Source: Escherichia coli (GTDB lineage Bacteria > Pseudomonadota > Gammaproteobacteria > Enterobacterales > Enterobacteriaceae). From it: a stretch of 64,000 nt of DNA. The notes beneath the pieces were generated by a model. The model saw nothing but the letters and a program-made list of their open reading frames with translations. It was not told where the DNA came from and searched no databases. The position numbers and the translations under genes were made by a program. This document shows positions 13,737 to 14,652 of this stretch, one piece after another; position 1 is the stretch's first letter, and every line of letters starts with the position of its first letter. The stretch lies in NCBI RefSeq assembly GCF_030013205.1, contig NZ_CP122648.1. One strand, written 5' to 3'.

Positions 13737-14402
13737 TCAAACAAAACCAGCCGCTTTCCGGCGTTCATATTCCTGTTTCAGCAACTCAATTGGCGTTGGT
13801 CCCGACGGGTGTTTGGGTGCCGCCAGTTGTCGCCGGACTGGCGGAATGCTCAGGCCATTACCAACATGCTTTGCCCATTTCGTCAGTTGCCATTCTGCAA
13901 GCCGTTTTAACTCCCCTTCGGTCATCTGGCGCTCAATCCCCTTTGAACGCATCTCGAGGCAAATGTGATACAGCACAGGCTGAGACCACGGGTACTTATC
14001 ACTTCCGTCGTATCGCCAGGACTCATTGCGCCAGCGGCGGTACTCCTCCATCACAGCATCCACCGTCAGACCAAATGGATTGGCTCCGCTTTCCGAAATC
14101 AGCGCCACAAACTCAGCCAGGTCCGGAGGCCATGTTTCACCCGCCCGGCAGCGGTCCATGCACTGGCGGCAGACCTGCCGGATTTGCTGCTCAGTCATCG
14201 CGCCAATCTGTGCAATCCAGAGCTTCGAAGGTGCGGCCCCGTTCTTCTGGGTCCAGCGGTTCGAATAAACCTCCCCCATGAGTTCCCACAGCTTCCAGGC
14301 CGTTTCCGTCGCTGATAAATCCGTTTTCACGTTCCCACTGCTCACGTGCTGCCCGAATTTCCTGAACTGCTCGTGATGCGGTGCCACCTGGTGCTGCTGC
14401 AT
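13737..14402 (-). CDS. Replication protein P-like (helicase-loader family)
   Basis: Central and C-terminal similarity to lambda P (WIAQIGAMTEQQ…, YPWSQPVLYHICLEMR, TEGELKRLAEWQL…, from memory); N-terminus overlaps the next ORF in another frame. Confidence 0.55.
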   Translation of the reverse strand: MQQHQVAPHHEQFRKFGQHVSSGNVKTDLSATETAWKLWELMGEVYSNRWTQKNGAAPSKLWIAQIGAMTEQQIRQVCRQCMDRCRAGETWPPDLAEFVALISESGANPFGLTVDAVMEEYRRWRNESWRYDGSDKYPWSQPVLYHICLEMRSKGIERQMTEGELKRLAEWQLTKWAKHVGNGLSIPPVRRQLAAPKHPSGPTPIELLKQEYERRKAAGFV

Positions 14403-14652
14403 GGTTTACCCCCTTGCTGACTGGTTTAACCTGCGCCCTGACGTGATTTACGTGACGGGCGAATTTCTGCTCCCACTGAATCTGCGTGAACACTTTCCCC
14501 TCCGCTGCCCAGTAGTCCCGGAAGGCTGCAAATTCAGCTGGTGTAAATTCCGGCTCAGGCAGAGCCACTCCCCACAGAGCAGCCCGTCGTCGAAAATCCG
14601 GCGACGGATGCCAGCCATCGGTCATCGGAAATTTCCCGATGGGTTCGCTCAT
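14191..14652 (-). CDS. Hypothetical replication-region protein (possible O/DnaT-like fragment); may be a pseudogene
   Basis: 153-aa ORF with ATG but no SD; overlaps the P-like ORF by about 210 nt out of frame. Confidence 0.3.
   Translation of the reverse strand: MSEPIGKFPMTDGWHPSPDFRRRAALWGVALPEPEFTPAEFAAFRDYWAAEGKVFTQIQWEQKFARHVNHVRAQVKPVSKGVNHAAAPGGTASRAVQEIRAAREQWERENGFISDGNGLEAVGTHGGGLFEPLDPEERGRTFEALDCTDWRDD

Follow-up and report, generated by a model that had tools for sequence, protein, structure and literature searches.

Is a long out-of-frame overlap between the two genes of a prophage replication module a scar of decay, or is it the way in which the module is built? The question is raised by two open reading frames on the minus strand of the window, a 64,000-nt stretch of an Escherichia coli contig (NZ_CP122648.1) to which all positions refer unless another locus is named. 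ORF A (14191..14652) would encode 153 aa and ORF B (13737..14402) 221 aa from an ATG at 14402, and the two have the stretch 14191..14402, i.e. 212 nt, in common. In Pfam, ORF A matches the DnaT DNA-binding domain (PF17948; residues 8-74, E 1.1e-17, 63.9 bits against a cutoff of 25) and ORF B scores 59.2 bits with Phage_lambda_P (PF06992; cutoff 26, E 5.4e-16), its residues 56-188 being aligned to profile positions 28-161. By this match ORF B, called P in the following, belongs to the lambda-P-type helicase loaders and is predicted to load DnaB. ORF A is referred to as O-like.

A sequence-only reading of the locus had noticed the overlap, given as about 210 nt in different frames, and in addition that the upstream ORF lacks a Shine-Dalgarno (SD) sequence and an N-terminal DNA-binding domain and that no iteron array is evident. 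From this it was suggested that the module is disrupted and that the element can no longer replicate autonomously. The observations are borne out: the frame offset ((14652-14402) mod 3 = 1) places P in the O+1 frame; in the sequence preceding the ATG of ORF A at 14652 (...CTTATCTGGACGGC, directly followed by the ATG) a good SD was not found; no Pfam domain stands ahead of the DnaT domain in ORF A; and no iteron cluster was found anywhere in the window, GTCACG/CGTGAC occurring at most twice in any 300 nt. As to their interpretation, the module does appear to be defective, but the overlap is not the cause, since 80 of 80 relatives have the same 212 nt in both genes.

These 80 close relatives, fetched from IMG/VR, all combine the 212-nt overlap with a P of 221 aa, and their O-like ORFs are full-length (348-433 codons from stop to stop) in all but a few, the exceptions including two that are cut by contig ends. 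The overlap is also present in phage Rac-SA53 and in the PPompW prophages. The same frame relation is found in Klebsiella phages, where the O/P overlap measures 215 nt, and in the Vibrio phages D62, 1.214.O and D68, with overlaps of 212, 191 and 200 nt, respectively. The Vibrio diversity consists of these three GenBank phages, and a scan of IMG/VR with the P protein of D62 found no relatives. The overlap of the window is 100% identical to that of a relative with a full-length initiator, and the translations of both the O frame and the P frame align across the E. coli, Klebsiella and Vibrio lineages. Since the overlap recurs in every relative examined, it is not a chance feature of the window copy. 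Judged from these alignments, the 212-nt out-of-frame overlap is a native, conserved arrangement, neither a lesion nor a frameshift. In literature searches of incomplete coverage, a description of the O/P overlap was found neither for DnaT-type modules nor for Rac-SA53 or DopCE.

In seven lineages no stop interrupts the O frame over the first 62-69 codons of P, whereas 6-20 stops occur in this frame over the next ~150 codons, and only 1-19% of synonymous-randomised sequences were stop-free. The P frame is open, and its ATG at 14402 conserved, in 164 loci. By this measure, the openness of both frames across the overlap in divergent lineages is beyond chance. The constraint within the overlap is partitioned between the frames. 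Down to ~14323 nucleotide diversity is highest at the third positions of O codons, and from 14322 on at those of P codons, the O frame being dominant in the initial ~80 nt of the overlap and the P frame in the final ~130 nt. The O third-position diversity is lowered in the proximal overlap (p = 0.001), and the P third-position diversity was 0.346 in the overlap vs 0.405 in the rest of P, a difference that is not significant in this Synplot-like test (p = 0.08). For some lineage pairs the O-frame identity lies above the synonymous-randomisation expectation (window-D62, p 0.004-0.011), whereas such an excess is absent for the pairs of the window with loci L169 and L170. These figures are only a faint indication of selection on the distal O tail itself, and we do not claim strong independent selection there.

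The start of P, which we infer from conservation only, is annotated in different ways. Public entries for P exist at 221, 180 and 153 aa, and both RefSeq/PGAP and the Rac-SA53 record annotate the short 153-aa P. In the E. coli-type and Klebsiella-type loci a purine-rich SD (AAGGGGG, GGAGG or GGGAG) is kept at the start of the 221-aa form. In tblastn searches with P, residues 1-221 matched a Klebsiella phage (67%), residues 18-221 protein P of phage PAS61 (28%) and residues 1-132 Vibrio phages (31%); from residue ~18 to 221, P can be aligned with the P proteins of lambda and PAS61, and the Phage_lambda_P profile is entered at position 28 by P residue 56. Residues 28-70, which match lambda P domain II, show a conservation of 0.84 vs 0.85 for the rest of P, and residues 28-68 align to the P proteins of phages without an overlap at this place (PAS61, lambda). 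AF2 predicts confident helices for residues 24-96 (pLDDT 77-87), and there is a direct but weak match of P to lambda P (chains 8v9t and 8v9s). In lambda P, the compact domain II comprises residues 30-119 (domain limits from PMC12661323). The lambda P architecture of domains I-IV, i.e. an N-terminal lasso, two compact domains and a C-terminal lasso, is obtained only with the 221-aa start, and a protein from 14198 would miss the equivalent of domain I and half of domain II.

The RefSeq model implies that P is a protein of 153 aa translated from ATG 14198 by coupling to the O stop, and that the 68 codons upstream are fortuitously open. Indeed, this ATG overlaps the O stop by 8 nt (ATGACTGA), an ATGA-type stop/start overlap being a classic coupling signal, the same start was chosen by PGAP and by the authors of the Rac-SA53 record, and the residue concerned, Met69 of P, is conserved in the E. 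coli and Klebsiella types. It is however a Leu in the Vibrio phages, and no SD is found upstream of ATG 14198, in contrast to the strong and conserved SD before 14402. The P-frame codon-phase signature begins at about 14322, ~125 nt upstream of 14198, and the alignment to the non-overlapped P regions of PAS61 and lambda as well as the entry into the Pfam profile also speak against a beginning at Met69. In addition, a lambda P deleted for codons 9-86 is inactive, initiation being abolished (PMC3640518). We consider the RefSeq model unlikely. The 153-aa 'replication protein P' is probably too short, and the 221-aa form, not the 153-aa form, would be the functional loader, with a short isoform alongside the long one as a possible addition. 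The sequence-only reading had named, as what would speak against a disruption, an intact homolog with two complete genes and a shorter P start; the first part applies, as both genes are complete in E. coli ETEC1732 (339-aa initiator), but the second does not, the evidence favouring 14402.

What, then, inactivated the module? An alignment to intact homologs, which the same reading had proposed as a way of locating frameshifts or deletions, revealed no frameshift behind the overlap, but instead a deletion of ~2.7 kb with its breakpoint between 14664 and 14665. In detail, positions 13000-14664 of the window equal positions 5601-7265 of the ETEC1732 locus (L004) at 100%, and the window resumes at L004 9978 (ydfC, 97%), 2685 nt being skipped. 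The skipped stretch holds the 5' part of the 339-aa DnaT-like gene, ydaT, ydaS, racR and a small zinc-binding gene. The similarity to phage vB_EcoS-689R5 extends from window position 14661 onward and begins exactly at the ydfB stop codon of this phage, and a 4-bp GATA microhomology is common to both parental sequences. The intact initiator of ETEC1732 (L004 6792-7811) contains the start of ORF A at 14652 as an internal Met, and the intact relatives carry 180-210 residues ahead of the DnaT domain (DUF1376, HTH_36 or no Pfam match). PGAP lists the O-like remnant as a pseudogene ('incomplete; missing N-terminus').

On this comparison, the true damage is the loss of the 5' part of the O-like gene through the ~2.7 kb deletion at 14664/14665, and it is because of this deletion that ORF A lacks an SD, an N-terminal domain and iterons. 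The best identities for the right-hand parent were 97% to L004 and 99% to L008; since no exact right-hand parent was found, the 'one deletion' could instead be a deletion plus a recombination event. The junction occurs in 17 of 5426 complete E. coli genomes, all of them porcine isolates with 100% identity. Around the junction, an Rfam search of window positions 12000-17000, aimed at DicF or other RNAs, had no hit that reached the gathering score. The features of the locus are collected in the table.

Table. Features of the truncated O/P module in the window
Feature	Position	Strand	Remarks
P-like helicase-loader gene (predicted)	13737..14402	-	intact, 221 codons + stop, ATG 14402; identical in intact relatives
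Shine-Dalgarno AAGGGGG of P	14409..14415	-	6 nt upstream of P start; within the O-like coding frame
O-like initiator 3' remnant, ~157 codons, DnaT domain	14191..14664	-	100% identity to C-terminal part of the ETEC1732 339-aa gene
O/P overlap, probably dual-coding, 212 nt	14191..14402	-	O tail (ORF A codons 84-153) + P N-terminus (codons 1-71, O+1 frame)
Internal ATG, Met69 of P	14196..14198	-	annotated start of the short (153-aa) P, RefSeq and Rac-SA53 record
Deletion junction, GATA microhomology	14661..14664		three-way comparison: window vs L004 (left parent type) vs L008 (right parent type)
Deletion right flank: ydfB stop region, ydfC leader, ydfC (14692-14910)	14665..14910	+	match to phage vB_EcoS-689R5

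The deleted part would also have contained the origin. In the intact L004 gene, five GTCACG copies at a spacing of 10-11 bp are followed by an A/T-rich stretch (L004 7377-7423), and four further copies lie at L004 7615-7683. The whole 13-kb L004 locus has 15 copies vs 5.3 expected, a number reached in none of 200 shuffles, and the array lies entirely within the deleted part. A sigma-70-like promoter was not found in 14300-15800 by a crude consensus scan, read-through transcription being possible. Lacking the origin-binding domain, the origin and probably a promoter, the remnant would be unable to initiate replication.

ORF A could nevertheless be a functional stand-alone protein retained by the host, e.g. 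a modulator of the primosome or of DnaB, or an excluder of related phages. It is an unbroken ORF whose first codon is a native internal Met, its exact sequence is present on 73 contigs, and the adjoining P gene is intact as well. Against this stand the absence of an SD and of a promoter-like site, and the narrow range of carriers, which are essentially clonal porcine ETEC/O139 strains; a divergent lineage with a free-standing version was not seen among the relatives. Since the carriers are clonal at 100% identity, the persistence of ORF A shows recency, not selection. We regard such a function as very unlikely, and from its comparison with the complete gene the window copy of the DnaT-domain initiator is a remnant, not a functional member.

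The surroundings of the module are decayed as well. The host element spans roughly 20 kb between tRNA-Ser and yccA, with att-like repeats at 4-103 and 20435-20537 (91% identical) and an integrase ORF at 19274-20293. The tail genes are fragments, head or terminase genes were not found in the prophage, the exonuclease gene has an in-frame stop at 16738-16740, and the prophage has lost its immunity region and half of its initiator by deletion. Judged by this gene content, the element is a defective (cryptic) lambdoid prophage, a gutted remnant.

Taken as a whole, we consider it highly probable that a Rac/lambdoid-type module with a native overlap and the long P start was inactivated by a microhomology deletion. 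The ancestral module would have consisted of an O-like initiator of ~339 aa and a lambda-P-type helicase loader of 221 aa. The initiator would have comprised an N-terminal origin-binding half, with the GTCACG iteron origin in its own coding sequence, a DnaT-type domain and a tail of ~70 aa, and translation of the loader would begin within the initiator gene, at a separate SD and ATG (14415-14400), and proceed in the +1 frame over ~70 codons until the initiator stop is reached. A single illegitimate deletion of ~2.7 kb via the 4-bp GATA microhomology (junction 14664/14665) would then have taken the first ~185 codons of the initiator together with the iterons, ydaT, the cro-like ydaS, the repressor gene racR and the divergent early promoter region, and fused the initiator remnant to the ydfB stop/ydfC region. 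The P gene, which is intact, is now probably silent.

There are two other ways of explaining the overlap itself. It could serve programmed +1 ribosomal frameshifting, which would yield an O-P fusion with P having no independent initiation. P lies in the O+1 frame in every lineage, and ahead of its ATG the P frame is open for only 1-15 codons, so that a shift would have to fall within the overlap; every lineage has however kept a start codon and an SD where the P frame begins, and P residues 1-27 occupy the position of domain I of lambda P, which is a free N-terminal element. We regard frameshifting as extremely unlikely. The idea that the two genes were once separate or abutting and that a frameshift or small indel created the overlap and disrupted the module, for which one may cite typical lambdoid modules that overlap by 4 nt only (in lambda, 39585 is the last position of O and 39582 the first of P) and phage PAS61, where a DnaT-type initiator ends right at the P start, can practically be dismissed, given that intact modules of the 80 close relatives and of the distant Klebsiella and Vibrio phages have the same overlap in a constant frame relation, that both translations align between lineages and that the window's own overlap is unchanged from that of a relative with a full-length initiator.

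The window itself is of little weight, being one more decayed prophage with a pseudogene already flagged in RefSeq. What is new for it is the correct cause, i.e. a microhomology deletion that would have removed the origin, the DNA-binding half of the initiator and the whole immunity switch in one step. The truncated module is thus an ordinary finding, and the conserved, probably dual-coding O/P junction a modest side result. The module is widespread, being found in Klebsiella and Vibrio phages as well as in thousands of prophages of E. coli, among them the PPompW elements associated with Stx phages. Its initiator and helicase-loader genes overlap out of frame by ~70 codons, a conserved arrangement which annotation pipelines treat inconsistently, with the three lengths of P given above. 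A 'replication protein P' that is cloned, modelled or counted from such short annotations would be a truncated protein, and a long O/P overlap in a DnaT-type module should not count as a sign of decay.

Beyond compaction, the overlap of 190-215 nt may be a conserved 'specificity cassette', in which the initiator tail and the N-terminal lasso and first half of domain II of the loader are encoded by the same DNA, a suggestion that we put forward tentatively and hold to be rather doubtful. If the O tail and the P N-terminus are partner-recognition surfaces, recombination between mosaic phages could never part a cognate initiator tail from its loader. The C-terminal tail of the initiator consists of a helix and a disordered acidic tail ending in an LDxxDW motif. 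Consistent with a cassette, the tail-plus-P unit stands behind at least five unrelated N-terminal/central initiator architectures from E. coli to Vibrio phages, it is systematically mis-annotated, and lambda, which has no such overlap, retains a similar C-terminal motif. An AF2 model of an O tail-GS linker-P fusion from a paired 16-row alignment had a mean pLDDT of 57 and a pTM of 0.40, with the distal tail disordered, and spoke neither for nor against a docking of the tail on P. The tail was also considered as a homologue of the lambda O read-through product (O', PMC3640518), which was rejected as the lambda frame past the UGA is dissimilar and stops after 34 codons.

The closest well-studied counterpart is lambda O/P, in which an initiator gene is likewise followed by a PF06992 helicase-loader gene. 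As with ori-lambda inside gene O, an iteron array and then an A/T-rich stretch lie within the initiator gene of the intact relative, P aligns to lambda P over domains II-IV, and the O-like protein closes with an LDxxDW-like motif, just like lambda O (...LDLTNTDWIYGVDL). Unlike in lambda, the C-terminal half of the initiator is a DnaT-type domain plus tail, the iteron is GTCACG instead of an 18-bp one, and the out-of-frame overlap in DnaT-type modules is 191-215 nt as compared to 4 nt; in the window, moreover, the N-terminal half of the initiator and the origin are deleted. Long out-of-frame overlaps are known from other phage genes, such as lambda Rz/Rz1 and phiX174 A/B/K, and automatic gene callers routinely miss or truncate genes that overlap out of frame. 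In those cases, too, one DNA stretch encodes two proteins in different frames, whereas in the overlap described here the 3' end of a replication gene doubles as the 5' end of the gene of its partner.

The DopC/DopE pair, proposed to be domesticated from a lambda-like phage (Brezellec et al. 2017, PMC5509034), combines a protein with HTH_36 and a DnaT C-terminal motif with a lambda-P-like protein, which is the initiator architecture of PPompW and PAS61. In contrast to the module described here, DopCE is chromosomal and without iterons, and an overlap is unmentioned in PMC5509034. The nearest relatives are the YdaU/YdaV-type modules of Rac-SA53, the PPompW prophages and ETEC1732, which have the DnaT domain, the tail and P at 94-100% nucleotide identity and the same 212-nt overlap. 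They differ in that their initiators are complete (339-356 aa) and have N-terminal domains (DUF1376, HTH_36 or no Pfam match), whereas ~157 codons are left in the window. PGAP names the two proteins of this YdaU/YdaV-type pair 'DnaT-like ssDNA-binding domain-containing protein' and 'replication protein P'.

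The O-like ORF A, an initiator remnant, and ORF B, the gene for the helicase loader P, have 212 nt in common (14191-14402), ORF B being shifted by +1 with respect to the frame of ORF A. Pfam searches identified the DnaT DNA-binding domain in residues 8-74 of ORF A (E 1.1e-17) and Phage_lambda_P in ORF B (E 5.4e-16), where residues 56-188 match profile positions 28-161. The sequence-only reading had described such an out-of-frame overlap of about 210 nt, together with an upstream ORF lacking a Shine-Dalgarno (SD) sequence and an N-terminal DNA-binding domain and with the lack of an iteron array. 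All of this was borne out, as no convincing SD sequence was found upstream of the ORF A start, nothing is present N-terminal to the DnaT domain and a motif search over the whole window gave no iteron cluster. The claim that the replication module is disrupted stands in so far as the module is defective; the cause, however, is a deletion and not the overlap.

Positions of the two overlapping genes, the SD sequence of P and the integrase gene
Feature	Position	Strand	Remark
ORF A (O-like)	14652→14191	minus	153 aa
ORF B (P)	14402→13737	minus	221 aa
P Shine-Dalgarno, AAGGGGG	14409-14415		in the window
Integrase ORF	19274-20293		intact, 339 aa

The long O/P overlap is native to the module. Of the close relatives retrieved from IMG/VR (protein identity 96-100%), 80/80 have both the 221-aa ORF B and the 212-nt overlap, and the initiator ORFs are full-length (348-433 codons from stop to stop) in all but a few, two of which are cut by contig ends. 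This contradicts the view of the overlap as a sign of disruption. The N-terminal domains of the initiators vary, with DUF1376 in Rac-SA53, HTH_36 in PPompW and no Pfam match at the N-terminus in the intact E. coli ETEC1732 locus (L004) and Klebsiella phage Kp4865-4; common to all four are the DnaT domain, the tail that lies within the overlap, and P. Klebsiella-type loci, defined by 79-100% identity to the P query of Kp4865-4 (itself 67% identical to the P of the window), show an overlap of 215 nt. The Vibrio phages D62, 1.214.O and D68 have overlaps of 212, 191 and 200 nt in an unchanged frame relation, with P proteins that are only ~31% identical and initiators that even lack the DnaT domain. 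Phage PAS61 is unlike the window type, as its DnaT-type initiator stops right after the domain and the P overlap is 4 nt, the same length as the O/P overlap of lambda.

Alignment against intact homologs, suggested earlier as a means of locating deletions, did locate one. The window from 13000 to 14664 is 100% identical to the ETEC1732 locus, which goes on past this point with the remainder of a 339-aa 'DnaT-like ssDNA-binding domain-containing protein', followed by ydaT, ydaS, racR, a small zinc-binding gene and ydfC. The window jumps to the ydfC leader instead, skipping 2685 nt of this arrangement, and its right flank is 99% identical to phage vB_EcoS-689R5, the match beginning exactly at the ydfB stop codon. 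In a three-way comparison GATA at 14661-14664 was present in both parental sequences; the junction between 14664 and 14665 is therefore a 4-bp-microhomology deletion. The ATG at which ORF A starts encodes a Met inside the intact protein (...EYLDGMSEPIGKF...), and the truncated copy is an ordinary pseudogene previously flagged in RefSeq, where PGAP lists 14191-14664 as 'incomplete; missing N-terminus'. Over 13400-15400 this E. coli chromosome matches the complete genomes of 14 porcine ETEC and O139:H1 strains at 100% identity, and just 17/5426 complete E. coli genomes carry the exact arrangement. This narrow clonal distribution and the 100% match between the retained part and intact relatives indicate that the event is recent.

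No sigma-70-like promoter was detected within 14300-15800, and the gene order suggests that the divergent early promoters were lost with the deleted segment, as were both regulators. As the deletion ends exactly at the ydfB stop codon, ydfC and dicB (~16047-16229) jointly lost their upstream promoter/repressor region, which would avoid derepression of the DicB division inhibitor upon loss of the repressor. DicF RNA gave no Rfam match at gathering score.

It is also because of this deletion that the putative origin is absent from the window. In the ETEC1732 locus, the part of the initiator gene that the window has lost holds five GTCACG copies 10-11 bp apart, followed by an A/T-rich stretch (ACAGATAAAGATACAGATAAAGAATTAAA; L004 7354-7433), and four further copies, one of them inverted, lie 200-300 bp upstream (L004 7615-7683). 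The 13-kb locus holds 15 copies versus 5.3 expected (0/200 shuffles reached 15), and 9 of them fall in the 310-bp stretch that carries these two groups. We infer that the array is a candidate replication origin of the intact relative, which, by comparison with the annotated lambda iterons, would likewise lie within the initiator gene. An A/T-rich element, TCTTTATCTGT, is duplicated in this candidate origin, the two groups of repeats being ~250 bp apart.

In lambda, iteron binding is the task of the N-terminal half of the initiator, and recruitment of the P-DnaB complex that of the C-terminal part. By analogy, the N-terminal half of the initiator in the intact relatives presumably binds the GTCACG iterons and the C-terminal part presumably recruits the P-DnaB complex; P would be translated from an internal SD and ATG in the 3' region of the initiator gene. 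In the window, where the deletion removed the putative origin together with the origin-binding half of the initiator, the promoter and both regulators, the remnant would be unable to fire, and the P gene, itself intact, is probably silent.

RefSeq and the Rac-SA53 record let P start at ATG 14198, resulting in 153 aa and an overlap of ATGACTGA, and public entries for essentially the same P sequence have 221 aa, 180 aa (start Met42), 177/178 aa or 153 aa. Our analysis favours the start at 14402. In tblastn searches P residues 1-221 were matched in Klebsiella, 18-221 in PAS61, where the corresponding P region overlaps nothing, and 1-132 in Vibrio proteins. The Pfam match begins at profile position 28 with P residue 56, 13 residues before Met69, the residue encoded at 14198, which is replaced by Leu in the Vibrio phages. 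The conserved WPPDL motif is preceded, at a distance of 89-91 codons, by an ATG in all usable loci (164/164), and in the E. coli and Klebsiella types a purine-rich SD lies 6-7 nt ahead of this ATG; no SD was found before 14198. Among 134 unique aligned sequences (64-100% identity), diversity is highest at O third positions as far as ~14323, and from 14322 on, which is ~125 nt upstream of 14198, it is highest at P third positions. Conservation is 0.84 for P residues 28-70 and 0.85 for the rest of P, residues 1-27 being looser at 0.69, a partition that matches the structure of lambda P with its disordered lasso (domain I, 1-29) and compact domain II (30-119) (PMC12661323). Residue 71 of the window P aligns with lambda P residue 82, and lambda P without codons 9-86 no longer supports initiation (PMC3640518). 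AF2 predicted confident helices for P residues 24-96 (pLDDT 77-87). An extra short isoform could exist alongside the long form. The current RefSeq choice of 153 aa lacks the counterpart of lambda P domain I and of half of domain II.

The evidence for selection on the distal O tail is mixed. In favour of selection, seven divergent lineages keep the O frame free of stops from P codon 1 to codon 62-69, yet show 6-20 stops in the ~150 codons that follow, and stops occur all along the third frame; when the P protein was fixed and synonymous codons were randomised, the O frame stayed open in just 1-19% of sequences. An LDxxDW-type motif closes the tail in the E. coli (LDCTDWRDD; window 14194-14220), Klebsiella (VDCPDWIDE) and Vibrio D62 (LDNGDWSSK) lineages. 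Lambda O, which has no such overlap, ends similarly (...LDLTNTDWIYGVDL / ...KLDLTNTDWIYGVDL; lambda 39540-39585), and this end may be a C-terminal linear motif common to otherwise unrelated initiator C-termini. O-frame identity was higher than expected from the randomisation in the pairs window-D62 (p 0.004-0.011) and D62-D68 (p 0.0002). Against selection, the pairs of the window with 1.214.O and with D68 showed no excess, and P third-position diversity in the overlap was not significantly reduced (0.346 vs 0.405, p = 0.08). Judging from the translations and the frame relation, the R/W switch in the EE(R/W)G motif of the tail would be expected from a synonymous third-position change in a P Asn codon (AAC/AAT). 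In the AF2 prediction the distal tail is disordered, and no tail-P interface was obtained. The O tail is probably translated and ends at a conserved place, probably with a short linear motif on a disordered tail; for the most part the P frame determines its sequence.

The module belongs to a known class, DnaT-domain initiators paired with lambda-P-type loaders, which also comprises Rac-SA53 ydaU/ydaV, PGAP families and the phages from which DopC/DopE are proposed to derive (PMC5509034). No description of a conserved long O/P overlap was found in the literature searched, while 221-aa entries do exist in GenBank; the overlap is a modest new observation on a known kind of module, of practical use as a caution for annotation, and not a new system. 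The exact 153-aa ORF A is found in GenBank as 'prepilin peptidase' in E. coli O139 strains (73 contigs), a name without support from its DnaT-domain content. An E. coli-type module at 94% nucleotide identity is present in PP818812.1, Actinobacillus phage vB_Apl-pPE4, an odd host assignment for a Rac-like sequence.

The module sits in a ~20-kb prophage remnant with tRNA-Ser on one side and yccA on the other. An imperfect repeat pair of ~100 nt (91% identity; 4-103 and 20435-20537) flanks the remnant and probably represents attL and attR; the window start cuts into tRNA-Ser, and the left copy extends over the 3' part of this gene. In K_EC180, the closest listed genome, the integrase is annotated as frameshifted, unlike the intact ORF in the window, and an IS1 beside the Q-proximal genes is missing from the window (~6900-6914). 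The gene for a 3'-5' exoribonuclease/ExoVIII-like exonuclease (16516-18987; 2472 nt in intact relatives) is split by one in-frame stop at 16738-16740 into ORFs of 74 aa and 744 aa; PGAP labels it 'frameshifted; internal stop' in K_EC180. By the annotation of the near-identical K_EC180 stretch, the late region (~1-7600) is gutted: genes for tail fibre assembly, tail, host-specificity J and tail assembly are present as fragments only, a holin-like gene adjoins them and the prophage remnant has no head or terminase genes. Amid the nin-like genes, a ParD/ParE-type type II toxin-antitoxin pair (10141-10703, plus strand) runs opposite to the surrounding operon.
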